From the NCBI GenBank assembly GCA_041602815.1, contig JBFIFO010000003.1, forward strand, positions 1 through 58,334: a stretch of 58,334 nt of DNA, read 5' to 3'. The number at the start of each line of letters is the position of its first letter. The first letter of the stretch is position 1. The notes under the pieces are model-generated. The model saw only the letters and a list, made by a program, of their open reading frames with translations. It did no database searches and was not told the DNA's origin. This stretch comes from Alphaproteobacteria bacterium (GTDB lineage Bacteria > Pseudomonadota > Alphaproteobacteria > UBA8366 > JADFVY01). A program made the position numbers and the translations under genes. Below, in pieces: positions 2,437-25,759 of the stretch.

Positions 2437-2445
2437 CGCTGTCCG

Positions 2446-4539: not shown

Positions 4540-4542
4540 GAC

Positions 4543-5406: not shown

Positions 5407-5533
5407 TCCCGGACCCGGAGTTCGCGGGCAGGCGCCCGTTCAGGTGCGGCGCAAAATAACGGCCCGGCCGGAACCGGTCAACGCCGGATGCCGGGCATCG
5501 ATGAGCCGCGGTCCGGCTCAGACGGGTTGCGTC

Positions 5534-5779
5534 TCAGTACGGGCAGTCCGGGCGCTCGCAGGGGCCGGCGGATTTGGCGACGACATAAGCCTTGCACACC
5601 GGGCACTGCACGGTGTCCTCGATCTCCGGCGCACCGCCGGCCTTTGCCCCGGCATTGCCGCCGCGCCGCTGCTGCTTGCGTGCCTGGTCGAGCCGCCCGA
5701 CCAGCTTGAAGCCGTACCAGACGGCAAGCAGGATGCCGATCAGGACGGCGAGCTTTCCCAGGCTGGGTATTCCGAACAT
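5534..5779 (-). CDS. Small membrane-anchored protein with C-terminal Cys motif (putative Zn ribbon)
   Basis: 81 aa; N-terminal hydrophobic helix; C-terminal CPVC...CERPDC; co-oriented between the S49 peptidase and glyQ. Confidence 0.75.
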   Translation of the reverse strand: MFGIPSLGKLAVLIGILLAVWYGFKLVGRLDQARKQQRRGGNAGAKAGGAPEIEDTVQCPVCKAYVVAKSAGPCERPDCPY

Positions 5780-5833
5780 CGATGAACTCCTAGCGGCCCG
5801 GCGGGCCGGCGGTCAAGCGCAGCGGCAGCGGCG

Positions 5834-6703: not shown

Positions 6704-6768
6704 GGCGGCTAACATAGGGAGGGGGATGAATCCCCACAAGACGGAAAGCGCAGCGCCCGAGTCCGGCT

Positions 6769-7716: not shown

Positions 7717-7816
7717 TTTCGCCACACGGTGCGCTTTTTGGTCCACTTGACCATGGGTTCGGTTAAACTATGCTCGCTGCTATTCTGCAAGCCCTGCTAG
7801 GGAAAGGGGAATCATA

Positions 7817-10077: not shown

Positions 10078-10470
10078 ATGAGCGACAAGACTTCTTCGAT
10101 CCTGATCATAGATGACGACGAACTGCTGGTCACGCTGCTGGAACACAAGCTCGGTCAACGTGGTTTGTCGGTGAAGAGCGCCAACGACGGACAGGACGGC
10201 CTGATGGCGGCCATCGAAGGACAGCCCGATCTGGTGGTGCTCGACGTCATGATGCCGACCATGGACGGCTTCGAAGTGCTGCGCCGCATGAAGGAACACG
10301 AGCGCACCCGGGATATTCCGGTCATCATGCTGAGCGCCAAGCGTCTCGAGGATGACGTGGTGAACGGACTGAACCTCGGCGCTGCCGACTATCTCGTCAA
10401 GCCGTTCATGCCTGAGGAACTGCTGGTCAAGATCCAGAGGCTGCTGAGAGAAAAATGGATGCCCGCCTGA
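10078..10470 (+). CDS. Single-domain response regulator (REC only)
   Basis: ILIIDDD, PDLVVLDVMMPTMDG (phospho-Asp), IPVIMLSA, GAADYLVKPF; no output domain. Confidence 0.93.
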   Translation: MSDKTSSILIIDDDELLVTLLEHKLGQRGLSVKSANDGQDGLMAAIEGQPDLVVLDVMMPTMDGFEVLRRMKEHERTRDIPVIMLSAKRLEDDVVNGLNLGAADYLVKPFMPEELLVKIQRLLREKWMPA

Positions 10471-11762
10471 CGCCCCGCGGCGGGCGGTGTAGTTCGCTGC
10501 TCTGTGGAATTCTCTCGTTCGTCCTGTGGGCCGCTCTCGCGGCTCCTGCCTCGGGCAGCGAATTTCAACGCGTCTACGACGAGGCGGTCCAGGCCCAGCA
10601 ACGGGGCGATCTCGCAACGGCCGCGGTGAAGTTCGAAACGGCAAGCAGGATCGCGCCCGCAAGTGTCGACGTCCTGGTGCGGCTGGCCCTGGTCCGCGGG
10701 CAGCTTCGCGAATTCGACCGCGCGCTGGCCGCGGTTGACCGGGGTCTTCGCATCGCACCACGGAACACCGATCTGCGGCTGGCTCATGCCAGAATCCTGG
10801 GCTGGGCCGGCCGGTATGCAGAGGCATTGCGGACGGTGGAAGCGGTAATCGCTGAGCAGCCGCAGAACGCGGAGGCATATGCGATCAGGGGGCGCATCGC
10901 GTTCTACGAGGGCCGGCTCGATGCGGCGGACGCCGGTTTCGCGACAGCACTCAAGCTCGAACCCGGAAATGCCGAAGCTGCGGCCGGGCGGGCCGATGTC
11001 GCTCGCGCCCGGCAGGGGGCCGCACGCACGGAGCCCGCCGAGGCGGCAACCGGTAGTCCGAGGTGGCGCATCGATGCCGGTTATCTGCACAGCCGGTTCT
11101 CCCGGTTGAACCTGGATAACTGGCACGAAGGTTTCATTCGAGTAGAGCATCGCTGGCCCAGCCGAACGGCGCTCAGCCTGCGAGTCGATACCAGCAATCG
11201 TTTCGGTTCGACAGAGACCGCTGTCGGCGTCGGCATCGCGCAGCATTTCGGCGACGCCTTTACCGCCTATGCCGAGGGCTCGGTTTCGCCGGCAGCGGAC
11301 TTCCTGCCGCGATGGACGACTTCGGCGGGTGGTCGGCTGCGGGTCGCCGAAGGCGGCGGGCAGGTCGGGCCCCTACTGCTGAGTGCAGATCTCCGTCACA
11401 AGAGCTACGCGACAGGGGACATCCAGAATTTCGATCCGGGACTCGAGCTGTACGGATTCAATGGTCGGGCCTGGCTGACGGGCAGATGGATCAACGCGTT
11501 CGACCGTGAGGCCGATGTGCGCCTCGCCGGCTGGTTTGCCCGTCTCGACTGGCAGATGGCCGCGCCGTTCCGGGTGTTCGCCGGATTCAGCGACGCGCCG
11601 GAAACCGAGGCGGGCATAACCGTCGACACGCAGAGCGTATTCGGCGGCCTGGCGTTCGACGTCACTCAGAGCGTCCGCCTGAATGCCAGCGCTGCACGCG
11701 AAGATCGTGAAAATTCATACATTCGCAATGTCTTTGGTGTGTCATTGACGCTGCACTTCTGA
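10455..11762 (+). CDS. TPR-repeat + YaiO-family outer-membrane beta-barrel protein
   Basis: Signal peptide (AAPASG); several TPR-like helical repeats (ARILGWAGRYAEAL, PQNAEAY, EPGNAEA); C-terminal amphipathic strands with SPAADFLPRW and terminal ...SLTLHF (OMP C-terminal Phe). Confidence 0.8.
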   Translation: MDARLTPRGGRCSSLLCGILSFVLWAALAAPASGSEFQRVYDEAVQAQQRGDLATAAVKFETASRIAPASVDVLVRLALVRGQLREFDRALAAVDRGLRIAPRNTDLRLAHARILGWAGRYAEALRTVEAVIAEQPQNAEAYAIRGRIAFYEGRLDAADAGFATALKLEPGNAEAAAGRADVARARQGAARTEPAEAATGSPRWRIDAGYLHSRFSRLNLDNWHEGFIRVEHRWPSRTALSLRVDTSNRFGSTETAVGVGIAQHFGDAFTAYAEGSVSPAADFLPRWTTSAGGRLRVAEGGGQVGPLLLSADLRHKSYATGDIQNFDPGLELYGFNGRAWLTGRWINAFDREADVRLAGWFARLDWQMAAPFRVFAGFSDAPETEAGITVDTQSVFGGLAFDVTQSVRLNASAAREDRENSYIRNVFGVSLTLHF

Positions 11763-11802
11763 CGGCAAGGTGGCGGCCGCGATTTGTCGAAAGGGTCCGG
11801 CA

Positions 11803-12924
11803 ATGACACTCCTGGCAACAATCTGGTGGACCTCCGCCGTGCTGATGGTGGTTCCGCTGGTCATGCTGGTCACATTGATCCTTCGGCGCCTGTATCAGGA
11901 ACGCGTTGGTCGACGGCTGGCGGAGCGCAAGAAGGCGTTGACGATCTTGGCGATGATCTATTTGGAGGCGCCCGTCAACGACAAACGAATCCGGGAAATC
12001 TGCGGTAACTTCAATCTGACTGTGCTGCACAAGACTGCGAGCGGGCTGGTTCAGGGAAGGCGCCGGAAAGCCCAGCTGCGCATCGATCTTCGCTTGCTCC
12101 GCGACATCATTCAGGATCTTCTGGGATCGGTCCGTGGCGAAACCCGGGAACGGCTCGTCAATCTGCTGCGGACCACGTCGGCGCGACAGATTTGCCTGGC
12201 TGATCTGCGCAATCGCCGTGTCGACACGCGGATCAGCGCCATTGAGACGCTTACGCTCATCCCGGATCCGGAGGTCATCGACGCATTGCGCACCATGCTG
12301 GATGATCCAGAGCCCGATGTTCGCCTCGTCGCTGCGCGCAGCCTTGTCGCTCTCGGGCCGAATCTGACACTGGATGACCTCGTCGGAAAGCTGGATATCG
12401 GCGGCACGATCCGCTCGCGGATGCTTCGCGAAATCTTCCGCACCTTCGCGTCCTACAACGCCGCGGACCTAATGCTCCTGCTGGACCGCAATCCGCCGGA
12501 CCTTACCGCCGCACTCGCCATTTATGGCCTCGGGACGGCGCAGGATTACGGCGCCGTCTCAGTCATTGCCAACTGCGCCAGCTGGCCGTCGATCGATGTT
12601 CGCGCCGAAGCCATGCGCGCCCTCGCCGCCATTGGCCATCCTGGCGCGGAGCCGGCGGTCCTCCAGGCGCTGCAGGACGACGCCTGGGAAGTGCGCACCG
12701 AGGCCGCGATCTGCGCCGGAAGCATTCCGTTGCCGAGCGCCGTGCCGCTTCTGCGCGAGCGGCTCGAGGATATCGAGTGGTGGCCCCGATTCCGTGCCGC
12801 CGAGGCCTTGCGCTCGATCGGAAATGCGGGTCGAAGGGCGTTGGAGGCCGCCCGGCTGGGGAGCGGACGATCTGCCAGCATTGCCGACATGATCCTGGCC
12901 GAGGAGAGGGCCGCGGCGGCATGA
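11803..12924 (+). CDS. Membrane-anchored HEAT-repeat protein
   Basis: N-terminal TM helix; HEAT/PBS-like repeats LDDPEPDVRLVAARSL, SIDVRAEAMRAL, LQDDAWEVRTEAAICAG, LEDIEWWPRFRAAEAL. Its stop overlaps the GT2 start (ATGA at 12921-12924). Confidence 0.85.
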   Translation: MTLLATIWWTSAVLMVVPLVMLVTLILRRLYQERVGRRLAERKKALTILAMIYLEAPVNDKRIREICGNFNLTVLHKTASGLVQGRRRKAQLRIDLRLLRDIIQDLLGSVRGETRERLVNLLRTTSARQICLADLRNRRVDTRISAIETLTLIPDPEVIDALRTMLDDPEPDVRLVAARSLVALGPNLTLDDLVGKLDIGGTIRSRMLREIFRTFASYNAADLMLLLDRNPPDLTAALAIYGLGTAQDYGAVSVIANCASWPSIDVRAEAMRALAAIGHPGAEPAVLQALQDDAWEVRTEAAICAGSIPLPSAVPLLRERLEDIEWWPRFRAAEALRSIGNAGRRALEAARLGSGRSASIADMILAEERAAAA

Positions 12925-14375
12925 ATGTCGACTCCCTCCTCGCCAACGATGCACTGTCCTCGTATCTCGCGGCGACGGCTTGGTGGGCCAGCGTCATCAT
13001 CCTTTGCACGATGTTTCTGCAGAACCTGCTCTACATGCTGCAGCTGCTGCTTGCGTTCAATGTATTGCGGCGTTGGCGTTTCGTTCCCAATGCCGTTCGC
13101 GCGTGGCGTCAGCTGAGCGACACGTCGTTGCCGATTTCCCTGCTGGTGCCGGCCTACAACGAGGAAGCGACGGTCGTGGCCAACGTACGGTCGATGTTGG
13201 CACTGCATTATCCGCGGTTCGAAATCATCGTGATCAACGACGGCTCCAACGATGCCACACTGCAGACACTGATCGACAATTACGATTTGCGGCCCATCGT
13301 CCGGGTTTACGAGGAAGAAGTTCCGCATCGCCCCATCAAGGGGCTCTATGGATCACCGAATTACCCGAACCTCATCGTTGTGGACAAGGAGAACGGTGGC
13401 AAGGCCGACGCCCTCAACGCCGGGATCAACCTTTGCCGGCTGCCGATGTTCTGTGTCGTTGATGCCGACTCGATCCTGGAGGCGGATTCGCTGCTGCGAG
13501 CGGTGCAGCCGTTCTCCGAGGACCCGGACCGCGTTATCGCGGTAGGGGGAACGATTCGACTCGCCAACGGGAGCGGTGTGCACGGCGGCCGCGTGGTTTC
13601 GGTGGGTCTCCCCAACAAGCTGCTGCCGTTGTTCCAGGTCGTCGAATACCTCCGTGCGTTTCTCATGGCGCGCCTCGCGTGGAGCGAAATCAACGCACTG
13701 ATGCTGATATCCGGCGCATTCGGAATCTTCAAGCGCAGTGCTGCGGTGGCCGCGGGCGGGTACTCGTACGGCACCGTTGGCGAGGATATGGAGATCATCG
13801 TCAAGCTGCACCGCTACATGCGCGAAAAGGGCGAGGACTACGTCATTCGCTTCGTGCCCGATCCGGTGTGCTGGACGGAGGCGCCGGAGACCTTGCGCGT
13901 CCTGGGCCTCCAGCGCAAACGCTGGCAGCGCGGGGCGCTCGAAACGTTCTTCAAGCACATCCGCATGCTTTTCAACCCGCGCTACGGCGTGGTCGGGATG
14001 GTGGGGTTCCCGTACATCCTCTTGCTCGATGTGATCGGGCCTCCGGTTGAACTGCTCGGATATTTCCTCATTCCGATATTGTGGTATTTCGGATTCCTGA
14101 GTCCGGAATTCTTCGCCGCATTTCTGGCGCTGACCTTCGCATGGGGCGTAACCATCAGCGTCGGCACGCTGGTGCTGGAAGAAATGGAGCTGAAACGATT
14201 TCCGAAGACGCGACATCTGGCGTTGCTCGGATTCATCGCCGTTCTGGAGAATTTCGGATACCGCCAGATAAACAATTTCTTCCGGGTCGCCGGGTACTGG
14301 CAGTACCTGCGCGGCAACAAGGAATGGGGCCGGATGACCCGTGCCGGCTTCCAGCAGGCGCACACGAAGGAATGA
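12921..14375 (+). CDS. Processive glycosyltransferase family 2 (PgaC/IcaA/cellulose-synthase-like)
   Basis: SLLVPAYNEE, INDGSND, KENGGKADALN, VDADS (DxD), VGEDME, QRKRW (QxxRW); N- and C-terminal TM helices; GAGG-rich RBS before ATG 12921. Confidence 0.9.
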   Translation: MNVDSLLANDALSSYLAATAWWASVIILCTMFLQNLLYMLQLLLAFNVLRRWRFVPNAVRAWRQLSDTSLPISLLVPAYNEEATVVANVRSMLALHYPRFEIIVINDGSNDATLQTLIDNYDLRPIVRVYEEEVPHRPIKGLYGSPNYPNLIVVDKENGGKADALNAGINLCRLPMFCVVDADSILEADSLLRAVQPFSEDPDRVIAVGGTIRLANGSGVHGGRVVSVGLPNKLLPLFQVVEYLRAFLMARLAWSEINALMLISGAFGIFKRSAAVAAGGYSYGTVGEDMEIIVKLHRYMREKGEDYVIRFVPDPVCWTEAPETLRVLGLQRKRWQRGALETFFKHIRMLFNPRYGVVGMVGFPYILLLDVIGPPVELLGYFLIPILWYFGFLSPEFFAAFLALTFAWGVTISVGTLVLEEMELKRFPKTRHLALLGFIAVLENFGYRQINNFFRVAGYWQYLRGNKEWGRMTRAGFQQAHTKE

Positions 14376-14570
14376 CGTGATGCCGCGCTATGTGCACTGT
14401 TGGCCAAGTCCGGTTGGCAAGGTCGCGGGGTCGGCTCGGTGGCGGCGCGGGAAGGTCAGAAGCTCGCTTCGCGACCTTGCCGATCGGACGCAGCGGCCGG
14501 GCTCCCACCTGCCGATGCTGCGCATGAAGGCCGGCGCGTTGTGCCGCCTGAAACAGCTACGTGCAGAGGA

Positions 14571-17500
14571 GTGACGGCGGCCGTGCGTATCGTAAAATCA
14601 ATCAACAGCAAGTTCCTCCTGGTCACGCTGCCCTTTGTGTTCCTGTCCTCGATGGCGACGATTTTCGCGGTTGGAACGTTGCAGGTGCGCTGGGAAGAGG
14701 AGCATCTGCGAGACTTGATGCGGAGTCATGCTCGGACCCACAGCGAGACACTGGCTGCCCATATGCGTAGCAGCGATACCTACACCACCCGAATCATGCT
14801 GTCGTACGCTCTCTCCGACATCATCGCGGCGTCGCAGGTCAAGCGGGTCGTCCTCCTGAACGCGGCTGGCGAAGTGCTTTTTGCCGCCGGACAGTTGCGC
14901 GAGAGCTCCGACCGGTCCCTGTCCGTCGAGATACCTATTGTCACCGACGAGGATCGCGTCCCGCGCGAACTGGGACGATTGCAGATTTTCGCAGACGGCA
15001 TCGACCCCGGACCGATTCTCATCGAGAATACGGTCAACTATTCGATTCTGCTGGTCATCGTCATGGCCTCGATTATCGCCAGCATCGCACTGACCACCCA
15101 TTACGTGGTCAACCGCCCGCTCGGACAGTTCCTCGCAGCGGTTCGAACCTCCCAACCTCTTGCCAAACGGCAATCGGCGGCCTTCAGCCCGCCAGATGAG
15201 TTGGGTGAAGTGATCGACGCCTACAACGTAATGATGCAACAACGATTGGCCGACGAAGAGACGCTGCAACAGAACGAGCATCGCCTGCGTTCTATTCTCG
15301 AATCGAGCCCGCTCGGCATTTCCATTGTCACCCTACAAGGTACACCCCTGTACGCGAACGCGCGAATCCTGCAGATGCTCGGCCTCTCCCGCGATGAGTT
15401 CTTCCGCTCAAACGCGAGAGATTTTTATGTCAATCCAGGCGATCGGGACGAAATCGTCGAAATTCTGCAGACCGGTCAGGGCGTCGAAGATGTCGAGGTC
15501 CATCTTCGGCGCAAAGGAGGCTCGCCCTTCTGGGCACTGCTTTCGTTCATGCCGACGGATCTTTACAAGGGCGAGTGTTTCCTCGTCTGGCTCTACGACA
15601 TCAACGAGCGGCGCCTGATCGAGGATGAGCTGCATGCGAGTCGGGAGCTCCTGGAAGAGCAGGCGAACGAGCTTCGCGACCTGGCCGACACCTTTGCCGT
15701 GCAGAAATCCCGTGCCGAACAGGCAACCGCGGCGAAGAGCGAGTTCCTCGCCAACATGAGCCACGAGATCCGTACGCCGATGAACGCCATTCTCGGGTTG
15801 ATCGACCTGACAATGCAGACGGAACTCACCGCAGAACAGGCGAACAATCTCGCCAAGACCCGGACCGCAGCCCGTTCGCTCCTGGAAGTCATCAACAACA
15901 TTCTCGATATCTCGAAAATTGAGACAGGGAAATTGGAGCTCGAATCGGCGCCGTTCGACCTTAACGATACGCTCAGCGGCGTTTCGACGATGCTGGCAAC
16001 CGAGGCCGAACGCAAGCAGCTTGATCTGTTCTTCGTCACTGCGCCGGACGTTCCGAGATTCCTGGTTGGCGATACGCTACATCTCGGACAGGTTCTCCTG
16101 AACCTCACCAACAATGCGGTCAAGTTTACCGAAGTCGGCAGCATCGAGCTGCGTATCTGGGTCGAGGAGCGGCAGACCGGCTCGGTGACGCTGGGCTTTT
16201 CCGTGACGGACACGGGAATCGGCATCAGCGAGGACGTGCAGCCGGGACTATTCAAACCGTTCGTTCAGGCCGACGGTTCGACGACGAGGAAATACGGCGG
16301 CAGCGGTCTGGGACTTGTCATTTCGCGGCGCATCGTCGAACTCATGGGCGGGACGATCGTTCTCGAGAGTCGACCGGGCAAGGGCAGTACTTTCAGCTTT
16401 ACCGCCCGGTTTGGCCTGCAAGAGATGGATCGGACACCGGCCCCGCCGCCGGCGCGTGCGCCAAATGTCCTTCTGATCGCAAGCAGCCGTGAGACCCGTC
16501 GAATCCTTCCGGACGCGCTCGCAGCCTGGGGTATGACGGTTCATTCGGCGAATTCGACGACGACGGCCCTGGCAGAGATCGACCGGCTGGCGCAGATCGG
16601 CGATCCGAGCATCGACGTTCTGTTGTTCGACTGCAAGGTCCAGGGAACGAACTGCGTCGAAGCGGCGCGCAAGATCATGGATGAACGCAAGCTCGGGTCG
16701 GCGGCGACGGTCTTCCTGCTGCATGGCCAGCACCACGAGGAACTGCGTACGAACGCCGAGAATCTGGAGTTGTGTGAGTTTGTCGCCAAGCCCGTGCACG
16801 TGCAGGTGCTGGTTGACAGCATCCGCGGCGTGGCGCGACAGGATGACGCCGAGGGAAAGCCGGCGGCCGAGCATGCAGCACCGGCCATGAACCAGTTGCG
16901 GGCAGAGCTGCAAGGTGCCCGGATTCTCCTTGTCGAGGACAACGAGATCAATCAGGAGGTCAGCCAGGCTGTTCTCAAGCGGGTTGGGCTACTCGTCGAA
17001 ACCGCGAACAATGGCAGGGAAGCAGTCGACGCGGTCATTGCCGACGCAACGCGGTTCGATGCGGTACTGATGGATGTGCAAATGCCAGAGATGGATGGGC
17101 TGCAGGCCACCCGGGCAATCCGGGAACATCCGGGTTTTGCCGAGTTGCCGATCATCGCGATGACCGCACACGCGTTTGCCGAGCAACGGCGCGATTGCCT
17201 CGATGCGGGCATGAACGACCACATTCCGAAGCCGGTCGAACCGGCCCGCCTGGTTGCTGCGCTCAACAAATGGATCAGGCCTGGCGGCAGCGCATCGGAA
17301 GAACCAGCGAACGAAGCACCGGCGGATGCGGCCGAGGATGGCACCCCCGGTCCCGACGAGCTTCCCGGTATCGACGTCGCCGGCGCCCTCGAGCGGCTCG
17401 ACGTCACGAGGGAATTCTTCGACATGCTGCTCAAGAAATTCCACAGCAGGCACGAGGGCGTGGGCATCGAAATCCAGGATGCGTTCGCCCGGTCCGACCT

Positions 17501-17702
17501 GCGGCGCGTTGAGGAAATCGCGCACCTCTTGAAAGGGATGGCGGGCAATCTTTCGGCCAATGATCTGTCGGCAGCGGCGGAACGCGTCGAGGCGGCGGCC
17601 CGCGACGAGGACGCGGAGCATCTGCCCGAACTGTTGGCGCGCCTGCAAACCGCTCTCGCCCCGGTCCTCGAGTCGGCCTCGCGAGCCGGCAGCGATTCCT
17701 GA
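14571..17702 (+). CDS. Hybrid sensor histidine kinase (TM-periplasmic-TM-HAMP-PAS-HisKA-HATPase-REC-REC-Hpt)
   Basis: KSEFLANMSHEIRTPMN, NLTNNAVKFT, DTGIGI, FVQADGSTTRKYGGSGLGL, a degenerate REC1, REC2 with LLVEDN/DVQMPEMDG/HIPKP, Hpt IAHLLKGMAGNL. Start uncertain (GTG 14571 or 14583). Confidence 0.92.
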   Translation: MTAAVRIVKSINSKFLLVTLPFVFLSSMATIFAVGTLQVRWEEEHLRDLMRSHARTHSETLAAHMRSSDTYTTRIMLSYALSDIIAASQVKRVVLLNAAGEVLFAAGQLRESSDRSLSVEIPIVTDEDRVPRELGRLQIFADGIDPGPILIENTVNYSILLVIVMASIIASIALTTHYVVNRPLGQFLAAVRTSQPLAKRQSAAFSPPDELGEVIDAYNVMMQQRLADEETLQQNEHRLRSILESSPLGISIVTLQGTPLYANARILQMLGLSRDEFFRSNARDFYVNPGDRDEIVEILQTGQGVEDVEVHLRRKGGSPFWALLSFMPTDLYKGECFLVWLYDINERRLIEDELHASRELLEEQANELRDLADTFAVQKSRAEQATAAKSEFLANMSHEIRTPMNAILGLIDLTMQTELTAEQANNLAKTRTAARSLLEVINNILDISKIETGKLELESAPFDLNDTLSGVSTMLATEAERKQLDLFFVTAPDVPRFLVGDTLHLGQVLLNLTNNAVKFTEVGSIELRIWVEERQTGSVTLGFSVTDTGIGISEDVQPGLFKPFVQADGSTTRKYGGSGLGLVISRRIVELMGGTIVLESRPGKGSTFSFTARFGLQEMDRTPAPPPARAPNVLLIASSRETRRILPDALAAWGMTVHSANSTTTALAEIDRLAQIGDPSIDVLLFDCKVQGTNCVEAARKIMDERKLGSAATVFLLHGQHHEELRTNAENLELCEFVAKPVHVQVLVDSIRGVARQDDAEGKPAAEHAAPAMNQLRAELQGARILLVEDNEINQEVSQAVLKRVGLLVETANNGREAVDAVIADATRFDAVLMDVQMPEMDGLQATRAIREHPGFAELPIIAMTAHAFAEQRRDCLDAGMNDHIPKPVEPARLVAALNKWIRPGGSASEEPANEAPADAAEDGTPGPDELPGIDVAGALERLDVTREFFDMLLKKFHSRHEGVGIEIQDAFARSDLRRVEEIAHLLKGMAGNLSANDLSAAAERVEAAARDEDAEHLPELLARLQTALAPVLESASRAGSDS

Positions 17703-17871: not shown

Positions 17872-18117
17872 ATGCGTGCAGTGATAGCAGCGGCAATCAT
17901 GATGACGGGAACGGCACTGGCGGCAAGTCCCGCCGGGGCGCAGCAACCCGTGAAGGGCCAGGATGCGGTCGCCATTGTGCAGGGCGGCCAGATTCGGGCT
18001 TCGTCCAGCGAGGGGTTTCAGGGATTCCTGCTGTTGATCGAATATCGGGGCGTGAACTATACCTGCGCCGTGACGGCGGGCGGACAGGTACAGACCTGTT
18101 ATCCGCTTTACTGGTAG
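17872..18117 (+). CDS. Small secreted hypothetical protein
   Basis: Strong RBS AAGGAGGA; signal-peptide-like N-terminus (…TALA…AGA); mature part with two Cys (YTC...QTC). Confidence 0.65.
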   Translation: MRAVIAAAIMMTGTALAASPAGAQQPVKGQDAVAIVQGGQIRASSSEGFQGFLLLIEYRGVNYTCAVTAGGQVQTCYPLYW

Positions 18118-18205
18118 AAACACAACAGGGGACTCGCGGGGCGATGCCACGACCTGCACCGGTGAATGCGGACGGCAGTCGATTCCCCGTCCCGCCGGGG
18201 ATATC

Positions 18206-18850
18206 GTGCGGAAACTGAGGTTTGCACTCTGGTTCGCCGTGGCGACGGCGATTGCGCTGTTTGCGGCGCTTCAGTTCATTAGCAGACTGACGCCCCAGCC
18301 GGTCGGAGAGGCGGAACAGGCGCGCACGGCCGAAGAGATCGGCCGCGAGATCGTCACTGGCGAATTCTCGCTTGTCGACGGGCAGGGCAAACCGGTTTCG
18401 GATATCGATTTCCGCGGCTCGTGGCTGCTGATCTTCTTCGGGTACACCCACTGCCCGGATGTCTGCCCGACCACCCTGGGCTCCGTTGCACTGGTCTTGG
18501 ACGAGCTTGGCAGCGACGCCGAGTCGCTGCAGCCGCTCTTCATAACGGTGGATCCCGCCCGCGACTCGCCCGATGTGGTGCGGGAATACGCTGCTGCGTT
18601 CCATCCGAAAATCATCGGCCTGACGGGCAGCGAGCAACAAGTGGCAGCAGCGGCCCGATCGCATCGGGCCTATTATGCAAGGGCCACAGCGTCGAATGGC
18701 ACGTCGGCGGACGCCGACGATTACGCCATGGATCACTCTGCCCATCTCTTCCTGATGGATCCTGACGGTGTCTACGCCACAGCCTTTTCCCAGACGACCA
18801 CAGTCGAGGCCATGGTCCGGATTATCCGTGAGCGAATGACCGGAGATTAG
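18206..18850 (+). CDS. SCO1/SenC family copper chaperone
   Basis: FFGYTHCPDVCPTTL (CxxxC), FITVDPARD, IIGLTGS, YAMDHSA (His ligand); N-terminal TM. Confidence 0.93.
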   Translation: MRKLRFALWFAVATAIALFAALQFISRLTPQPVGEAEQARTAEEIGREIVTGEFSLVDGQGKPVSDIDFRGSWLLIFFGYTHCPDVCPTTLGSVALVLDELGSDAESLQPLFITVDPARDSPDVVREYAAAFHPKIIGLTGSEQQVAAAARSHRAYYARATASNGTSADADDYAMDHSAHLFLMDPDGVYATAFSQTTTVEAMVRIIRERMTGD

Positions 18851-19079
18851 CGGGGACGGGTGCTTTCCCGGCAATTCGATATCGGTCTGCGCCGAGTCGC
18901 ACGCCCGACAGGATTCCGGCCGATATCCGCAGCAAATTTCACCTTCTGCGGTGCGGCGGATCGACGCAAGAACCTTGCCGGCGGCAGTCTCGCACACGGC
19001 TGGCTGAATCCGGCGCATACCGCTGTTTCGGGGCGGCAGGCGATGGGTCGGCTTTGTCCGCCGTCGAAGGCGCCAAGCT

Positions 19080-19526
19080 GAAAATTATTGAGTATTCACA
19101 ATAAGTTAATCTAAATTGCATGCAACCCGGCCCGCCAGCCAAGTTAACTACTTCCGAGAACCTGCGCCAGGATTTTCCCTTTTTAATATTCCCATCATAT
19201 CGTAATATCGTATTGCAGAAATGCCGCGCCCGAATCAGAGACTAACCTCTGAAATAGAGTTCCAATGATACGCCGAAGTCTGCGATTTATTGGAGGTGCA
19301 AAATGAAAATCACATGAAAGCAAATCCCATCTCTACTGGAAATATGAGAAAAGACTTTACAGTTTTTCTTGTGCGGGGGTAGGATTTCAAAAATCCGTTG
19401 GTACGCAGGGGGTTAAAGTCGAATTTCAGTGGAGGTGAAATCAAGATTACTTTCCTTGCACGACAATGGGGCTGCCGGCGGGGAAAGTAAACCGGGACCG
19501 ACAGGGTTTATTGAAGGCAGGGTGAC
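19080..19526. promoter_or_regulatory. AT-rich regulatory region upstream of the PilZ-methyltransferase
   Basis: Visibly much more AT-rich than its flanks. Contains tandem ATATCGTA x2 (19197-19212), an imperfect inverted repeat AGAAAAGACT-TTAC-AGTTTTTCT (19347-19369) and several TTAA half-sites. Confidence 0.55.
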
Positions 19527-20978
19527 ATGCATTCCTACGAACGCCTTTCCGGTGCGTCCGGACGGCGCGTGTTTTATCGCGCAGAACGATTCAAGGCGCG
19601 GGACCTGTTCCCGCAGGCGACGGCCAAGGTCGAAATCGACGATACTCTTCTGGCGCTGGAAGACTTGAGCATGACCGGCTTCAGTGCGATTGCTCCCGGT
19701 GCTGCGCTCTGGGCTCCGCGCATCGGCGAGGAGTATGCCATCCGCCTCCTGCTTGACGATATGGTGCTGCACGAGGGGCGTGCGAAAGTATGTCGAATTG
19801 GTCGGCAGAAATGCGGCGTGAGTGTCGGGCTCGGGCTGACATCGGATTACCTCGACATCGCCGACGTCATAGGCAAGCGCAACCGCCACCTCCTCGATCT
19901 CGAAATCGGCCATGGCCTGGTCCCCGATACTGGCCTCGTCGATCCCGAATACAGAAAGCTCAGCGCCGACGTCGTGCACCTCTTGCGGAACTTCCGCGCG
20001 ATCCTCGAGCGGCACGAGTTGCGTGGCAACGGTTATGCGTCCCCGCCACCGCAAAGTCCGATTGACGAAGCGCTGCAGCTTTGTGAGGAACGGATTATTC
20101 CCGCATGGCGCCAGCACTGGGAGCATGCCAACAGTCTCGTTGAACCGTTGATGTCCGAACCGGACCGCTTGCGGGCGACGAAGCGGTTTACCGAACTCGT
20201 CGTGACGCCGGAGTTCATGGATGGACCGATCTGGCGCCGCAGTTACGAGAAGCCGCTCGGATACCCGGGCGACTATCAGGTGATGAATCATGTCTATGCC
20301 TGGCGGCGCGAAGGCGATTCCGCGACCGGCAAGCTTCTTCATCGTGCAGGACTCGAGGTTGCCGAGTGCATCGGCACGCGCATGCGCATGATTGAACAGA
20401 TGATCGCCCACGAGGTCGCGTCCCGACCGGCGGGCGAAGTCACTCATATCGCCAGCATCGGAAGCGGCCCGGCCAAGGAAGTGTCGAATTACCTTCAGGC
20501 CGACGAAATCCCGGGTGTCGTATCGTTTACCCTCGTCGACCAGGAACATGAAGCGCTCGAGCAGGCCTACAGCGATATCTACCCACAGACCACGCGGCAC
20601 GGGGGCAGGGCTGCGGTGCAGTGCCTGAACATGTCCTTCGTTGACCTGGCCAAGAAGAACCGGGTGTTCCCCGGCGTCGGACCGCAGGACTTCATCTACA
20701 GCGTGGGAATCGTCGACTATCTGGCAGATCATCGGGCGCGCAGCCTGGTCGCGTCGTTGTACGACCGACTGGCGCCGGGCGGCCGGCTGGTCATCGGAAA
20801 CATGCGCAGGACCAGTCTAAGCAATCTCTGGCCGATGGAATTCATCTGCGACTGGAGCGTCTATTATCGCGACGAGGCCGAAATGTGGGCCATGGTGGAG
20901 GGGTTGTCGGCAACGTCGCGCAAGCTCGAGACCGACCCGACCGGGCGCGTGTACATGCTGACTCTCCGCAAACCCTGA
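19527..20978 (+). CDS. PilZ-like domain + class I SAM-dependent methyltransferase (PhcB-like)
   Basis: N-terminal RVFYR (RxxxR) and DLSMTG (DxSxxG); central RRSYEKPLGYPGDYQVMNHVY; C-terminal IASIGSGPAKE, FTLVDQE, DFIYSVGIVDYL, LAPGGRLVIGN. Confidence 0.8.
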   Translation: MHSYERLSGASGRRVFYRAERFKARDLFPQATAKVEIDDTLLALEDLSMTGFSAIAPGAALWAPRIGEEYAIRLLLDDMVLHEGRAKVCRIGRQKCGVSVGLGLTSDYLDIADVIGKRNRHLLDLEIGHGLVPDTGLVDPEYRKLSADVVHLLRNFRAILERHELRGNGYASPPPQSPIDEALQLCEERIIPAWRQHWEHANSLVEPLMSEPDRLRATKRFTELVVTPEFMDGPIWRRSYEKPLGYPGDYQVMNHVYAWRREGDSATGKLLHRAGLEVAECIGTRMRMIEQMIAHEVASRPAGEVTHIASIGSGPAKEVSNYLQADEIPGVVSFTLVDQEHEALEQAYSDIYPQTTRHGGRAAVQCLNMSFVDLAKKNRVFPGVGPQDFIYSVGIVDYLADHRARSLVASLYDRLAPGGRLVIGNMRRTSLSNLWPMEFICDWSVYYRDEAEMWAMVEGLSATSRKLETDPTGRVYMLTLRKP

Positions 20979-21037
20979 CCACGCCCCTCGCGCGGCAGAC
21001 GCCGAATCGAGCCAGTTCGCAAAGACAGAGCGCCGCT

Positions 21038-22450
21038 TCAGCCGGGCAACTGGAGGGACTGCTGGGTGTCGAAAATCGTGCGCTCTGGCGGCAGGCGCAT
21101 CGTCACGACGGTGCCCTGCCCGGGCTTGCTGTCGATGGTCAGTTGCCCGCCGTGCCATTCGATGATCTTTTGCACGATGGGAAGCCCCAGTCCGGTACCG
21201 CCGCGTGAGCTGGTGTACGGGTGCGCGGCCCGATAGAATGGTTGCGTTGCGTTCCCCAAATCTTCTGCCGCCATGCCGATCCCGCTGTCGGCTACGCTCA
21301 ACACGCATGCGCCGGCCTCGTCCATCCACAGGGCGACGGAGACCTCACCACCCTTTTCGGTGAATTTGACACCGTTCGACACCAAATTGATGAGCACCTG
21401 CCGGAGCCGTCCGGGGTCGGCCATCACGACGACGCTGTGCTGCGGCAGCGAAGCCGAAATCCTGAGGCCGTGCGAGATATCCGGGACCCGGAACATCCGC
21501 AGGCACTCATCGACGATCCGGCACATGTCGACCTCGCATTCGGCGAAGGACAGCTTTCCCGCCTCCGCCGTCGCCAGATCGAGCATATCTCCGATGATGC
21601 TCAGCAGGTGGCTGCCGCTGGAGTAGATGTCCTCAGCGTAGATCTTATAACGGGGCGTGCCCAACGGCCCCAGGATCTCTTCCTTGACGATCTCGGAGAA
21701 TCCGATGATCGCATTGAGCGGCGTGCGTAGTTCGTGGCTCATGCTGGCCAGGAATTCCGTCTTTGCCTTGTTTGCCGCGTCTGCCCTGCGGCGCAGCCGC
21801 TCGGAGGCCGCCTTTTCGTATGTCAAAAGGCGAGTTTGGAGGTGATTCAGGCGCAGGTACAGTTCCTGCACATAGTTGACAACGCCACCGACCGCAATCG
21901 CCATTGCCAGGAAGAAATTGTTGCTCAGCAACACCTCGTAAGGAACGGGGTTCAGGACGAACGCCGACAACTGATAGATGGCGAACAGGATCAGCGAGAC
22001 GATCAGCGAATACACGTGGTGGAGACGCAGCACGCTGGCGCAGTAGATCACCACCATGATCAGGCCGGCGTAGTACCAGTAACTTGCGGGCGGTTCACCG
22101 AACACCGTCATGGCAATGATGCCCATGCCCGCGGCAAACATTGCGAGCGACAGTCCGGCCTGGGCGCAGCGCACGAAGTTGCGGTGATAGGTCAGGGCAA
22201 AGACCCCGAAGATGACCGGGAACACAAAGCCGAACCGGACAGCCCAGAACCGACTGACCACCTCGGGCATGAGCAGTGCGTCAAGCACGCCGAACAGCCC
22301 ATACAGAAACGCGCCGGCCAGCAGGCCGAGCCGTATGACCGGTCGCGAATCGAGCATGTGTCTGTACAGAAAGCGCCGTTCCGCGATTCTGTTCTTGAAC
22401 CGCAGGCTGAACATGTTCAGCTCTGAGAGGTTCGCCTTCCAGACGCTCAT
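21038..22450 (-). CDS. Membrane sensor histidine kinase with 6-TM input and PleC/DivJ(PdhS)-type transmitter
   Basis: Six hydrophobic segments, then EFLASMSHELRTPLNAIIGFSEIVKEEILGPLGTPRYKIYAEDIYSSGSHLL; NLVSNGVKFT, DSGIGM, GGTGLGL. Confidence 0.9.
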   Translation of the reverse strand: MSVWKANLSELNMFSLRFKNRIAERRFLYRHMLDSRPVIRLGLLAGAFLYGLFGVLDALLMPEVVSRFWAVRFGFVFPVIFGVFALTYHRNFVRCAQAGLSLAMFAAGMGIIAMTVFGEPPASYWYYAGLIMVVIYCASVLRLHHVYSLIVSLILFAIYQLSAFVLNPVPYEVLLSNNFFLAMAIAVGGVVNYVQELYLRLNHLQTRLLTYEKAASERLRRRADAANKAKTEFLASMSHELRTPLNAIIGFSEIVKEEILGPLGTPRYKIYAEDIYSSGSHLLSIIGDMLDLATAEAGKLSFAECEVDMCRIVDECLRMFRVPDISHGLRISASLPQHSVVVMADPGRLRQVLINLVSNGVKFTEKGGEVSVALWMDEAGACVLSVADSGIGMAAEDLGNATQPFYRAAHPYTSSRGGTGLGLPIVQKIIEWHGGQLTIDSKPGQGTVVTMRLPPERTIFDTQQSLQLPG

Positions 22451-22520
22451 AGCGTCACCAACTGTGCTCCTCGCCGGACCGGGCCTTTTCGGCCACTTTA
22501 CACAACTGTCGCCGAATATA

Positions 22521-22536
22521 GTTAACCAATTGTTAT
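22521..22536 (-). promoter_or_regulatory. CtrA-like box (1 mismatch) upstream of the 6-TM kinase
   Basis: Minus strand reads ATAA-CAATTGG-TTAAC, about 70 bp upstream of the start at 22450. Confidence 0.5.
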
Positions 22537-22682
22537 GACCGGAAATCCGCCCTTAACGATTTGGCGGCCACGTCATGCTTTCGCAGGCTGCTCAAACATT
22601 TGTGCCCCGTTGAATCCGGAGCATCTGGCGTCGCCGCAATGCTCAGCCGCCAGCCCTGCGTTCGTGTCCCGGCGGGCGTCAG

Positions 22683-24362
22683 TCAGGCGCTGCGGACCTC
22701 ACCCAGGAATCTCTCGACCTCGCGGCGCAGGCCCTCAGCCTGCTGCGCCATTTGCTGCGACGCGCTGAGTACCTGGCCGGCTGCAAGGCCTGTTTCGCCG
22801 ACAGCCTTGGAGACGCTTTCGATATTCTGGTTCACATCCTGGGTGCCGCGCGCCGCCTGCTGAACGTTGCGGGCGATTTCCTTTGTCGAGATCCCTTGCT
22901 GTTCGACCGCGGACGAGATGGTCGTCGCGATTTCGTTGACTTCGCCGATGATCGCGCGAATCTTCTCGATCGCGCCGACCGCATCGGTGGTTTCCTCCTG
23001 CACGGAAGCGATCTGCTGCGAAATTTCCTCGGTTGCGCGTGCTGTCTGGTTGGCAAGGTTCTTGACCTCCTGGGCGACGACGGCGAAGCCCTTGCCGGCC
23101 TCGCCCGCGCGGGCCGCCTCGATGGTCGCATTGAGGGCAAGCAGGTTGGTCTGTCCGGCAATGTCGCTGATCAGCTTCACAACGTCGCCGATCTTCTCCG
23201 CCGCTTCAGCCAGCCCCTGAACCGTCGTGTTGGTCGCCTCGGCCTCGGCAACCGCGTTCTGCGCGATCTTCGCCGACTGCATGACCTGGCGGCCAATCTC
23301 GGCGATCGAAGCAGACAGCTCCTCCGCCGTTGCGGCTACCGTCTGTACATTGGCGGCAGCCTCCTCGGACGCAGTGGCCACGTTGGTCGACTGGCGGCTT
23401 GTCTGTTCCGCCGTGGCCGACATTTGCTGTGCCGTCACCTGCATCTGCGTCGCGGCGGACGACACCCCTTCCACGACCTTCTTGACCTGTACTTCGAAGC
23501 GATCCGCCATTTCGCGAACGGTCTGGCGTCGCTCCTCAAACGCGCGCTGCTGGGAAGCCTCCTGTACCTCCTCCAGTCGCCGCTTCTCCACGGCGTTGTC
23601 TTTGAATATCTGCACAGCGCGCGCCATGTCGGCGACCTCGTCGCTGCCGTCCTGACCAGGCACGGCGACATCGGTATTGCCGCCGGCAATTTCCGCCATG
23701 ACCTGCGTAAGGCGCGAAATCGGGCGCGTGATGGTGCCGCCGACGAAATACAAGACGAGGACCAGCGCGCCGGCGAAGACTCCCCCCACAACCAGGGCGA
23801 TTTGTGACGAACTGGCGACCTCGTCGTTCAGCGCAGCGCTCGAACGGGCCACGTCCAGCACCACCAGATTCTGGAGTTCCGCCAGAAGATCAACAAGACC
23901 TTCGCCGTATTCGTCGATATCGTCGTCGAACCGGGCAAAATCCTGGCCGGCCCCGCTTTCGATTGCCTGCACGAGTTCGACCCGGATCACGCGGTCCGCA
24001 ATGTTGGTCAGCTCGGCAACCTCCGCTGCAAGTTCCGGCTTGTTTGCCCGTTCGGCAACGGCATCGATGATGTGCTGGTTCTCCCGCAACTCACTGATGC
24101 CCCGATCCATCTTTTCGAGACGCTCTTCGTACACATAGCCCTCGTCCGCATCGACGATCGAATCGGCCGCGGCAAGCACCAGCTCGAGGGTGGATACACG
24201 GAGGTCGCCCAGCGTCTGAGCTTCAAGCAGCATCAACTGGTTGGCATTGGTTACGCGCTTGACGGCGGTGCTCGCGTCCCAGGCGACGAGAATCAGTGCA
24301 AACAGAGCGACGACTGCGACCGTCCCCATGAAAACAAGTTTGCGTCTGATGGTCCGTTTCAT
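22683..24362 (-). CDS. Methyl-accepting chemotaxis protein
   Basis: TM-periplasmic helical domain-TM-HAMP; signalling tip IAGQTNLLALNATIEAARAGEAGKGFAVVAQEVKNLA. Confidence 0.95.
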   Translation of the reverse strand: MKRTIRRKLVFMGTVAVVALFALILVAWDASTAVKRVTNANQLMLLEAQTLGDLRVSTLELVLAAADSIVDADEGYVYEERLEKMDRGISELRENQHIIDAVAERANKPELAAEVAELTNIADRVIRVELVQAIESGAGQDFARFDDDIDEYGEGLVDLLAELQNLVVLDVARSSAALNDEVASSSQIALVVGGVFAGALVLVLYFVGGTITRPISRLTQVMAEIAGGNTDVAVPGQDGSDEVADMARAVQIFKDNAVEKRRLEEVQEASQQRAFEERRQTVREMADRFEVQVKKVVEGVSSAATQMQVTAQQMSATAEQTSRQSTNVATASEEAAANVQTVAATAEELSASIAEIGRQVMQSAKIAQNAVAEAEATNTTVQGLAEAAEKIGDVVKLISDIAGQTNLLALNATIEAARAGEAGKGFAVVAQEVKNLANQTARATEEISQQIASVQEETTDAVGAIEKIRAIIGEVNEIATTISSAVEQQGISTKEIARNVQQAARGTQDVNQNIESVSKAVGETGLAAGQVLSASQQMAQQAEGLRREVERFLGEVRSA

Positions 24363-24496
24363 TGCTCGTGCTCCGGCCGCAACGCCAACCGGAACCCCTT
24401 AGACGGGCTCACTCGATTGTCGATGCGCGCGCGACCCCGCTCCACCATACCGGTGGCGCGGCCGGTCCTGTTACGGCGATGATTGGCCAGCGGGGT

Positions 24497-24512
24497 TTAA
24501 GATCGGGTTAAC
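24497..24512 (+). promoter_or_regulatory. Perfect CtrA box upstream of the MCP gene
   Basis: TTAA-GATCGGG-TTAAC, an exact TTAA-N7-TTAAC, intergenic and about 135 bp from the MCP start. Confidence 0.75.
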
Positions 24513-24547
24513 CGCCGAGCCGCGAACTCGACGCCGTTGCCCGGCTG

Positions 24548-25759
24548 TTAGCCGGCGACGGCGACCGCGCCGGATGCGGCGAGGGCCTCGATCTCGTCGC
24601 GGCCATAACCGTGTTCCGACAGCACTTCGGCGGTGTGTTGGCCATATACCGGCGCACCCCGGACCACGCCGCCGGGGGTTCCGGAAAACTTGACCGGAAG
24701 GCCGATGGTCTTGACCGGCCCAAGGCGCGCATGCTCAGCTTTCGTCACCATTTCCCGCGCCAAAACCTGCGGATCGCGGTGCATGGCGGCGATATCGAGA
24801 ACGGGCCCGGCCGGCAGCCCCGCCGCCTCGAATCTGGCCAGCCATTTCTCGGTGGTTCGGTCGGCCAGGTAGCCCTCCAGCGCGGCCGCCAGTTCGTCGA
24901 GATGGGACATGCGGTCGACATTCTCCGTGAATCGCTCGTCCCCTGCCAGATCATGCGCATCGAGAGCATCGAGAAGGCGCAGCCAGTTCGCTTGGTTGGC
25001 GGCCCCGACATTCACCCAGCCGTCCTTCGTCCGCAGCGCCTGGTAGGGCGCATTCAGCGGATGTGCCGAACCCATTGGCCCCGGCGATTCACCGGTGGCG
25101 AAGGCGATGGCCGATTGCCAGTAGGTATGGGTGATCGCCGCTTCGAACAACGAGGTATCGACACGCTGCCCCTCGCCGGTCCGCAACGCATTGACATAGG
25201 CGGAGACAACACCCATCGCGCCGAGAATGCCGGCGGTGATATCGCTCACCGGCGCCCCGACCTTGACAGGCGGCCGGCCAGAGCCCTCGCCGGTGATGCT
25301 CATCAGGCCCGACATGCCCTGTGCGATCAGGTCGAAGCCGCCACGGTCGGCATAGGGGCCGGTGCGCCCGAAACCGGAGATCTCGCAGTAAATAAGCCGA
25401 GGATTGTCCTTCTTCAGCTCGTCGTATCCAAGCCCCAGCCGCTCCATGGTGCCGCGCCGGTAATTCTCGATGACGACGTCGGCATCGTGCAGCAATCTGC
25501 GCAGTACCGCCTTGCCTTGAACGTCCTTCAGGTTGATGGCAACGCCGCGCTTGTTGCGGTTCATCATCATGAAGGCCGCGGATTCGCCGTCGATCTCCGG
25601 CGGCACCGAGCGGCGCGTGTCGTCGCCGCCGGGCATCTTCTCCACCTTGATGACGTCGGCCCCCATGTCGGCGAGCATCAGGCCGCAGACCGGGCCGGCC
25701 ATGATGTGCGCCAATTCGATGACCTTCATCCCCCGCAAAGGACCGCGGCGCTCGGTCAT
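24548..25759 (-). CDS. CaiB/BaiF (class III) CoA-transferase
   Basis: GPLRGMKVIELAHIMAGP, LADMGADVIKVE, NRNKRGV, DVVIENYRRG, ISGFGRTGP, GFDLIAQGMSGLMSITG. Start trimmed to ATG 25759. Confidence 0.93.
   Translation of the reverse strand: MTERRGPLRGMKVIELAHIMAGPVCGLMLADMGADVIKVEKMPGGDDTRRSVPPEIDGESAAFMMMNRNKRGVAINLKDVQGKAVLRRLLHDADVVIENYRRGTMERLGLGYDELKKDNPRLIYCEISGFGRTGPYADRGGFDLIAQGMSGLMSITGEGSGRPPVKVGAPVSDITAGILGAMGVVSAYVNALRTGEGQRVDTSLFEAAITHTYWQSAIAFATGESPGPMGSAHPLNAPYQALRTKDGWVNVGAANQANWLRLLDALDAHDLAGDERFTENVDRMSHLDELAAALEGYLADRTTEKWLARFEAAGLPAGPVLDIAAMHRDPQVLAREMVTKAEHARLGPVKTIGLPVKFSGTPGGVVRGAPVYGQHTAEVLSEHGYGRDEIEALAASGAVAVAG

Follow-up and report, generated by a model that had tools for sequence, protein, structure and literature searches.

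In Ralstonia, the enzyme PhcB synthesizes methyl 3-hydroxymyristate or methyl 3-hydroxypalmitate, and the membrane kinase PhcS senses the product, as stated in excerpts of four papers (PMC10576176, PMC8578825, PMC11960443, PMC6989110). Excerpts of the last of these also describe an adaptive change in PhcB, R22C, whose N-terminal site is conserved among Ralstonia, Cupriavidus, and Paraburkholderia, and give “Regulatory protein” as the product name of the phcB gene RSc2735 (PMC6989110). A 2026 review, in the excerpts available, treats phc as a system of the Ralstonia complex. Here, we describe a related pair of genes in a 58,334-nt stretch of DNA from an alphaproteobacterium (assembly GCA_041602815.1, contig JBFIFO010000003.1, positions 1 to 58,334 of the forward strand); we refer to this whole stretch as “the window”. 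One gene (19527-20978, + strand) encodes a 483-amino-acid (aa) protein, a PilZ-fused, PhcB-family class I S-adenosylmethionine (SAM) methyltransferase that is a predicted signal synthase. The other (21038-22450, − strand) encodes a 470-aa membrane histidine kinase, the predicted signal receptor. Both open reading frames (ORFs) begin with ATG. An earlier note on this DNA, made from its letters alone, had read the two genes as a putative PhcB-like synthase and its receptor. Judged by sequence comparison, both are remote but demonstrable homologues of the PhcB-PhcS pair of Ralstonia, Cupriavidus, and Paraburkholderia. We propose, with a probability of roughly 0.6, that they form a phc-type, two-gene module for cell-cell (or self) signaling, with a predicted lipid methyl ester as the signal.

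Relationship to PhcB and PhcS

A clade from Paraburkholderia, Cupriavidus, and Ralstonia pickettii served as the comparator for PhcB and PhcS, standing in for the Ralstonia solanacearum sequences. A tblastn search of plasmid records identified a phcBSRQ-like operon on a Paraburkholderia graminis replicon, encoding a 468-aa methyltransferase, a 445-aa kinase, and two response regulators. The methyltransferase shares ~68% identity with proteins of Cupriavidus, its residue 22 is an arginine, and one of its homologues is named “Regulatory protein”; homologues of the kinase, including one from R. pickettii, are named PhcS. Together, the operon layout, the Cupriavidus identity and product name, the R22 residue, and the PhcS-named kinase homologues indicate that the comparator is the real Phc clade. 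K19620 is, we presume, the KEGG orthologue number for PhcB.

BLASTP aligns residues 217-473 of the window enzyme with the Paraburkholderia phc-operon methyltransferase at 27% identity (E 2e-28). When the profile of the enzyme family is compared with that of 16 PhcB-clade proteins using hhalign, the probability is 100% and the E-value 1.1e-49 over 401 columns, pairing residues 70-477 of the window enzyme with residues 51-458 of PhcB. Hence, the full-length similarity to PhcB expected in the earlier note is borne out for ~400 residues, but not strictly end to end: the first 50–70 residues, which hold the PilZ motifs, are unaligned. Twelve residues are invariant in a joint alignment of 46 sequences (30 from the window family, 16 from the PhcB clade), and they comprise all the invariant residues of the family: K242, P243, G245, D249, R285, G314, E318, D338, D397, Y398, W443, and R448. 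The segment RRSYEKPLGYPGDYQVMN is present within the translated ORF, and the motif KPxGYxGDY, named in the earlier note as typical of PhcB-annotated proteins, is indeed an invariant hallmark that the family has in common with the PhcB clade. Because identity to the PhcB clade is only 19–24% and the first 50–70 residues are unaligned, we regard the enzyme as a member of a sister clade of PhcB and not as its orthologue. Relatives are numerous: of the candidates scored in a word-indexed search, 484 are homologous at E ≤ 0.001, and an exhaustive search gave 3523 related representative clusters at the same threshold. Many of the 484 homologues carry the Joint Genome Institute (JGI) product name [quoted passage not shown].

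An AF2 model of the enzyme, built from 30 homologues, has a pLDDT (per-residue confidence score) of 89.3 and consists of three parts: a beta-barrel (residues 33-104) with the helix that follows it, an all-helical part (111-298), and a Rossmann-type part (305-481). Accordingly, we divide the protein into a PilZ domain (residues ~13-131; 19563-19919, + strand), a helical domain (residues ~132-298; 19920-20420, + strand) delimited by the secondary structure of the model, and a Rossmann-type SAM methyltransferase domain (residues ~299-483; 20421-20975, + strand). The helical domain contains the invariant KPLGYPGDY (residues 242-250, bases 20250-20276) and R285, and the methyltransferase domain contains a GSGPA motif, D338, D397-Y398, W443, and R448. 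In a Foldseek search, the whole model matches class I SAM methyltransferases with small-molecule or lipid substrates, the top match being the uncharacterized structure 3ocj (E 2.8e-11); others include Rv2258c, the CurJ C-MT, DsyB, and a phosphatidylethanolamine N-methyltransferase (8ys9). A search of PDB sequences, with the enzyme or with its family profile, gave no useful relative. In Pfam, the enzyme has weak scores for Methyltransf_12 (E 0.016) and CheR (E 0.032), and 23 of 30 family members match Methyltransf_12. The fold and the Methyltransf_12 matches of the family members together confirm that the protein is a methyltransferase.

The kinase has HisKA (residues 229-298; 21557-21766, − strand; Pfam E 1.4e-18) and HATPase_c (residues 345-456; 21083-21418, − strand; Pfam E 2.6e-29) domains. 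The phospho-acceptor H239 lies in SHELRTPLN, with residues S238-N246 invariant in 30 orthologues, as are the residues of the N and G boxes. Kyte-Doolittle hydropathy gives six hydrophobic stretches (~38-61, 68-86, 95-117, 123-143, 146-166, and 173-197), which we read as six transmembrane helices forming a sensor domain (residues 14-222; 21785-22411, − strand). Pfam has no domain over the first 230 residues, even at E ≤ 10. Nevertheless, several motifs in this region are kept among 30 orthologous kinases: LRFxDxxxE, FGxLD, IR, YYAGL, NPxP, SNxFFL, and YxQE.

Profile comparisons point to a remote PhcS/MASE8-type origin for this sensor. Against a single PhcS-like sequence, the profile of the kinase N-terminal domain gives a probability of 53% (E 1.3e-4), which is suggestive only; against a 20-sequence PhcS profile, the probability is 96.5% (E 1e-9) over 169 columns. 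Trimming the PhcS profile to its N-terminal domain gives a score of 72.3, an E-value of 1.4e-10, 195 collinear columns, and a probability of up to 96.9%. By comparison, reversed profiles score 15–17; none of 20 profiles shuffled in 22-column blocks exceeds 45.0, and most reach ~26, a score due to the YYAGL block alone. Eleven columns are at least 90% conserved in both sensor families, and seven of these have the same residue: L56, D57, R72, M114, Y127, G129, and E196 in the window kinase. A remote relationship to the PhcS sensor is therefore supported for the six-helix input noted from the DNA.

The same cannot be said of the label “PleC/DivJ-type”, which was not specifically borne out. NCBIfam scores are far below the equivalog cut-offs for DivJ (188.3 bits, cut-off 1000) and PdhS (177.4, cut-off 2000), and TorS scores higher than either (194.3, cut-off 676.5); all these matches cover just the generic kinase core (residues ~209-460), and we reject PleC/DivJ orthology.

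A second kinase with the same six-helix sensor (E 4.7e-82) is encoded on contig 9 of the same genome (632 aa; contig positions 23611-24231, − strand; ORF 274-2172, − strand, in the numbering of locus L085). Its sensor is followed by PAS, HisKA, and HATPase domains, and another PAS-kinase gene lies directly upstream. With a single enzyme gene, this genome therefore has one synthase and two matching receptors.

Conservation of the gene pair

The enzyme and kinase genes converge on a 59-bp spacer between their stop codons (20979-21037). ORF analysis, the HisKA and HATPase_c matches, and hydropathy confirm the arrangement given in the earlier note, i.e., a 483-aa enzyme ending 59 bp from a convergent kinase with six transmembrane helices. 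No terminator-like hairpin or stable structure was found in the spacer (fold z-score 0.44).

To what extent is this arrangement kept elsewhere? A pattern scan of one genome per species yielded at least 599 stretches and 561 confirmed relatives; the best 80 loci, all alphaproteobacterial and with 39–96% enzyme identity, were analyzed. Oceanibacterium hippocampi, Rhodovibrio sodomensis, Virgifigura deserti, Desertibaculum subflavum, and Parvibaculum sedimenti are isolates represented among the loci. A kinase orthologue that includes the membrane domain is present at 72 of the 80 loci, and in all 72 it is convergent with the enzyme gene. The other eight loci run into contig ends 5 to 1134 bases downstream, with the C terminus of the kinase visible at the edge in four. 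The kinase gene is within 300 bp of the enzyme gene at 65 of the 72 loci, with spacers of −29 to +300 bp; at the remaining seven it is 0.6–3.3 kb away, with a SCO1-like or other gene between. None of the other neighboring genes is kept across the loci; the real clusters next in size include no more than 30 loci. Three clusters (77, 62, and 34 loci) were excluded as shadow ORFs, antisense to the two genes and overlapping them. The SCO1, methyl-accepting chemotaxis protein (MCP), and hybrid-kinase neighbors seen in the window are kept only at its three closest loci (L001-L003).

An independent sample of 301 evenly drawn genomes of the class was scored at E ≤ 1e-20 for the enzyme and E ≤ 1e-10 for the sensor; no P-value is given, as related genomes are not independent. 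The enzyme was found in 23 genomes and the sensor in 29, with 20 genomes having both and 269 neither. In all 20, the two genes are on one contig within ~2.5 kb of each other, 19 pairs being convergent and one co-directional with stops inside. The enzyme is thus present in ~7% of sampled species (23/301) and in 18 of 254 genera. Adjacency of enzyme and kinase is far beyond chance, and the recurrent co-location with a six-helix kinase, proposed in the earlier note as a check, holds for 72 of 72 loci with enough flank and for 20 of 23 enzyme-positive genomes.

One sampled genome departs from the usual form: the enzyme match G006:C1:3901489-3902856 (− strand; E 1.2e-148, query residues 23-483) lies in a 623-aa open frame, in a genome that gave no sensor relative. 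This frame may represent a different fusion or partner.

The pairing also extends beyond Alphaproteobacteria. In Burkholderiaceae, an enzyme-kinase pair heads the phc operon. On a plasmid of the cyanobacterium Pseudanabaena sp. PCC 7367, a short, 280-aa form of the enzyme that has no PilZ domain is convergent with a kinase gene, which is followed by a single-domain receiver; the sensor of this kinase matches the window-type profile with E 9.9e-23. Directly beside this Pseudanabaena trio (region 1258-7704 of locus L083) are a recombinase and a Tn3-family transposase, and the plasmid is conjugative, which suggests that the module moves horizontally.

PilZ domain and CtrA-type boxes

The N-terminal domain of the enzyme has both PilZ motifs, R13-R14-V-F-Y-R18 and D46-L-S-M-T-G51, a six-stranded barrel (residues 33-104), and a C-terminal helix (111-131). 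Modeled alone, it has a pLDDT of 85.3 and the same six-stranded barrel with a C-terminal helix. Its top Foldseek matches are nearly all PilZ structures bound to cyclic di-GMP (c-di-GMP): 4xrn, Alg44 (4rt1), BcsA (4hg6), MapZ (5xly), and YcgR (5y6f), with E-values of 5e-4 and above and a template-modeling score to the target of ~0.55–0.6. The PilZ family PF07238 matches 14 of 30 family members (best E 1.2e-6); the window enzyme itself has no PF07238 match even at E ≤ 10. R18, R21, S48, and G51 are invariant in the family alignment, and [DN]x[SA]xxG is found in 70 of 72 orthologues. On the strength of the modeled structure, we consider the PilZ fold to be genuine, and the fold, the two motifs, and the PF07238 matches in the family uphold the suggestion of a PilZ-like input on the synthase. 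An N-terminal PilZ domain with c-di-GMP-binding motifs means that c-di-GMP probably gates signal production. A precedent for c-di-GMP acting through a PilZ protein on a methyltransferase comes from Pseudomonas, where MapZ controls CheR1, as described in excerpts of a preprint surveying PilZ proteins.

Neither RxxxR nor DxSxxG occurs in any of the 16 PhcB-clade proteins. From its residue 51 onward, the N terminus of the clade (residues ~1-90; comparator ORF 6422-7828 of locus L082) does align with the latter half of the PilZ barrel, and it may be the degenerate remnant of a PilZ domain. The R22C site of Ralstonia PhcB falls inside this N-terminal region that has no c-di-GMP motifs.

The consensus for CtrA sites is TTAA-N7-TTAA(C). 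Upstream of the kinase gene, a CtrA-type box with one mismatch (TTAACCAATTGTTAT, 22522-22536) lies 72–86 nt from the start codon, as the earlier note had pointed out. A box with at most one mismatch is present within 300 nt upstream of the kinase gene at 54 of 71 loci, 10 of them perfect. Three controls gave much lower frequencies: (i) 200 dinucleotide shuffles, with a mean of 5.8 and a maximum of 12; (ii) random 300-nt windows, at 4.75%; (iii) GC-matched windows elsewhere in the loci, at 86 of 1339. When 16 diverged upstream regions of Parvibaculaceae-type kinase genes are aligned, the sole invariant columns are the box halves TTAA(C) and TTA. By these comparisons, the box is a phylogenetic footprint.

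The enzyme gene has a box within 300 nt at 49 of 78 loci (26 perfect) and within 500 nt at 48 of 77 loci. In the window, a weak CtrA-like site (TTCACAATAAGTTAA, 19095-19109) lies 432 nt upstream of the methyltransferase start, and we doubt that it has a role in this lineage. A CtrA-type box thus stands in front of the kinase gene and, in many lineages, of the synthase gene as well, and receptor expression is probably tied to CtrA, the alphaproteobacterial regulator of cell cycle and motility. The window contains five TTAA-N7-TTAA sites with at most one mismatch, versus 1.19 expected. One of them is a perfect site (TTAAGATCGGGTTAA, 24497-24511) ~135 nt upstream of the MCP gene (22683-24362, − strand) that precedes the kinase gene.

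The intergenic region upstream of the methyltransferase gene (18851-19526) is AT-rich and unusually long (676 bp), with no Rfam match. It contains a single, weak promoter-like hexamer pair (19356-19385), no more than in shuffles. An Rfam scan of 18000-24600 gave a chance-level match only.

Proposed function and comparison with known systems

From homology to PhcB and PhcS, we infer the following scheme. Using SAM, the enzyme would O-methylate a carboxylate that derives from a fatty acid (a 3-hydroxy fatty acid being the likeliest substrate), and the product would be a hydrophobic, diffusible methyl ester. The six-helix, PhcS-like domain of the convergent kinase would detect this ester inside the membrane, with a resulting change in autophosphorylation, and the kinase would pass phosphate to a response regulator encoded elsewhere. 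Two layers would be added relative to the Ralstonia phc system: c-di-GMP probably gates signal production through the PilZ domain of the synthase, and the receptor gene would receive a transcriptional input through its CtrA-type box. The output to DivK and PleD suggested in the earlier note, and its feedback loop to the synthase, are speculation.

Several observations weigh against the proposed signaling module, and we consider them together. First, the enzyme has no match at E ≤ 0.01 in Pfam or NCBIfam, failing both the methyltransferase and the PilZ thresholds, and its identity to the PhcB clade compares poorly with the 65–91% found inside that clade, meaning that substrate and product may differ. 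Second, the kinase differs from PhcS in its phospho-acceptor region (SHELRTPLN versus LHEVNNPVN), and the N-terminal domains of 30 kinase orthologues match neither MASE8 (PF20968) nor any other meaningful Pfam family. PhcS-type kinases carry precomputed annotations of PF20968, and the Paraburkholderia PhcS-like protein reaches E 0.0044 in our search, below the cut-off. Third, the pairing has gaps, with three of 23 enzyme-positive genomes having the enzyme only (G006, G122, and G162; two are partial matches) and nine genomes having the sensor only, mostly as weak matches. Fourth, the earlier note had remarked that no cognate regulator is adjacent, and this is true across the loci: no PhcR, PhcQ, or other conserved regulator was found near the pair, and the window's own genome (84% complete) gave only generic receiver-domain matches for PhcQ. 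Lastly, the added layers have weak points. The canonical RxxxR is found in just 40 of 72 enzyme orthologues. As for the CtrA-type boxes, none precedes the enzyme gene in the window's nearest relatives (L001-L011), and the window's clade has none within 300 nt.

Some of these observations would also suit a metabolic role. The methylated compound might be a hydrophobic metabolite with no part in communication, for instance an intermediate of envelope or storage lipids, or a fatty acid from outside that the cell detoxifies; the kinase would be a homeostatic or environmental sensor of the compound or its precursor, and the two genes would make up a metabolic feedback circuit and not a quorum-sensing system. 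The fold neighbors are diverse small-molecule and lipid methyltransferases, including the phosphatidylethanolamine N-methyltransferase 8ys9, identity to PhcB is low, and no export, regulator, or target genes are linked to the pair across loci. The genome also has a second kinase with the same sensor, yet a single enzyme gene. We nevertheless think this explanation unlikely, given that both partners share ancestry with a proven pair of signal synthase and receptor, that the pairing is kept across phyla, and that all the invariant residues of the enzyme are common to PhcB.

A second explanation, drawn by analogy with MapZ and CheR1, is that the enzyme is a c-di-GMP-controlled, CheR-type protein methyltransferase that modifies the neighboring kinase or a chemoreceptor. 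The SAM domain of CheR gives weak matches to the window enzyme (E 0.032) and to 10 of 30 family members (best E 2.3e-4), JGI names one homologue “chemotaxis methyl-accepting protein methylase”, an MCP gene adjoins the kinase gene in the window, and excerpts of the PilZ survey preprint describe the MapZ-CheR1 link. However, the CheR score, at 14.1 bits, falls short of the cut-off (27) and comes from the generic SAM fold only, whereas the match to PhcB is stronger by tens of orders of magnitude and takes in the helical domain as well. The MCP neighbor is kept only at loci L001-L003, and the top fold matches are small-molecule enzymes. We reject the CheR assignment on the Pfam score, and consider a role in protein methylation very improbable.

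That the two genes are functionally unrelated neighbors is scarcely credible: they are convergent and so are not co-transcribed, but the conservation data refute chance proximity, with the pairing kept at 72 of 72 loci down to 39% enzyme identity while all other neighbors change, 20 of 23 enzyme-positive sampled genomes having the sensor, and the same pairing found in a cyanobacterium and, as an operon, in Burkholderiaceae.

If the proposed signaling module is correct, it would extend phc-type signaling, described in print (in the excerpts at hand) only for the Ralstonia complex and close betaproteobacterial relatives, to many Alphaproteobacteria. It would also provide a testable case of intracellular c-di-GMP controlling the synthesis of an extracellular signal, and a link between quorum-type signaling and the CtrA cell-cycle circuit. 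In a search of full-text literature, with subscription-only papers and supplements outside its scope, no paper dealt with PhcB fused to PilZ, with alphaproteobacterial systems of the phc type, or with a link to CtrA; the one paper that mentions PhcB, a methyltransferase, and PilZ together refers to the pilus gene pilZ. A bolder and rather doubtful extension combines c-di-GMP-gated signal synthesis with CtrA-timed production of the receptor: attached cells with high c-di-GMP would produce the signal and motile, CtrA-active cells would listen, with the terminator-less and sometimes overlapping convergence of the genes enforcing mutually exclusive transcription of synthase and receptor. If true, this would be a division of labor between alphaproteobacterial cell types through a previously unrecognized, widespread signal class (~7% of sampled species).

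Elsewhere in the window, a co-directional cluster (10078-17702, + strand) encodes a stand-alone receiver, a protein with tetratricopeptide repeats and a YaiO beta-barrel, a HEAT-repeat protein, a family-2 glycosyltransferase, and a hybrid kinase with PAS-HisKA-HATPase-REC-REC-Hpt architecture. This cluster looks like a regulated exopolysaccharide secretion system, and it is kept beside the enzyme-kinase pair only at L001 and L003. A 1695-aa ORF (58-5145, + strand), a putative gene, has no Pfam match at E ≤ 1e-5.

Of the described systems, phc is the closest. Like PhcB, the window enzyme is ~470–480 aa long, with KPLGY[PA]GDY in a helical domain that precedes a class I SAM methyltransferase domain, and is always partnered with a membrane kinase bearing a related sensor. 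Unlike PhcB, it has an N-terminal PilZ domain with RRxxxR and DxSxxG, neither motif being present in the PhcB clade (16/16); its gene is convergent with the kinase gene, whereas phcB heads the phcBSRQ operon; and its host is an alphaproteobacterium. The kinase shares with PhcS a polytopic membrane sensor that has no periplasmic domain and is directly followed by HisKA and HATPase domains. Over their whole length the two sensor domains can be aligned, and LD, R, M, Y.G, and E are common to both. The kinases differ in that the window sensor and its 29 orthologues have no Pfam MASE8 match, the phospho-acceptor motif is SHELRTPLN, and no PhcR or PhcQ gene follows the kinase gene.

Two other comparisons are instructive. 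In the MapZ-CheR1 system of Pseudomonas aeruginosa, a PilZ domain conveys c-di-GMP control to a SAM methyltransferase, as is proposed here, and MapZ (5xly) is among the fold matches of the N-terminal domain. The difference is that MapZ acts in trans, whereas the PilZ domain in the window is fused in cis, and to a PhcB-like rather than a CheR enzyme. The logic of CqsA/CqsS in Vibrio and LqsA/LqsS in Legionella is also alike: a cytoplasmic enzyme makes a hydrophobic signal, and a kinase with six transmembrane helices senses it within the membrane. No relationship in sequence to those systems was found, none having been sought. Their synthase chemistry is unrelated: the synthase is an acyl-CoA transferase dependent on pyridoxal phosphate, whereas the predicted synthase described here is a methyltransferase.

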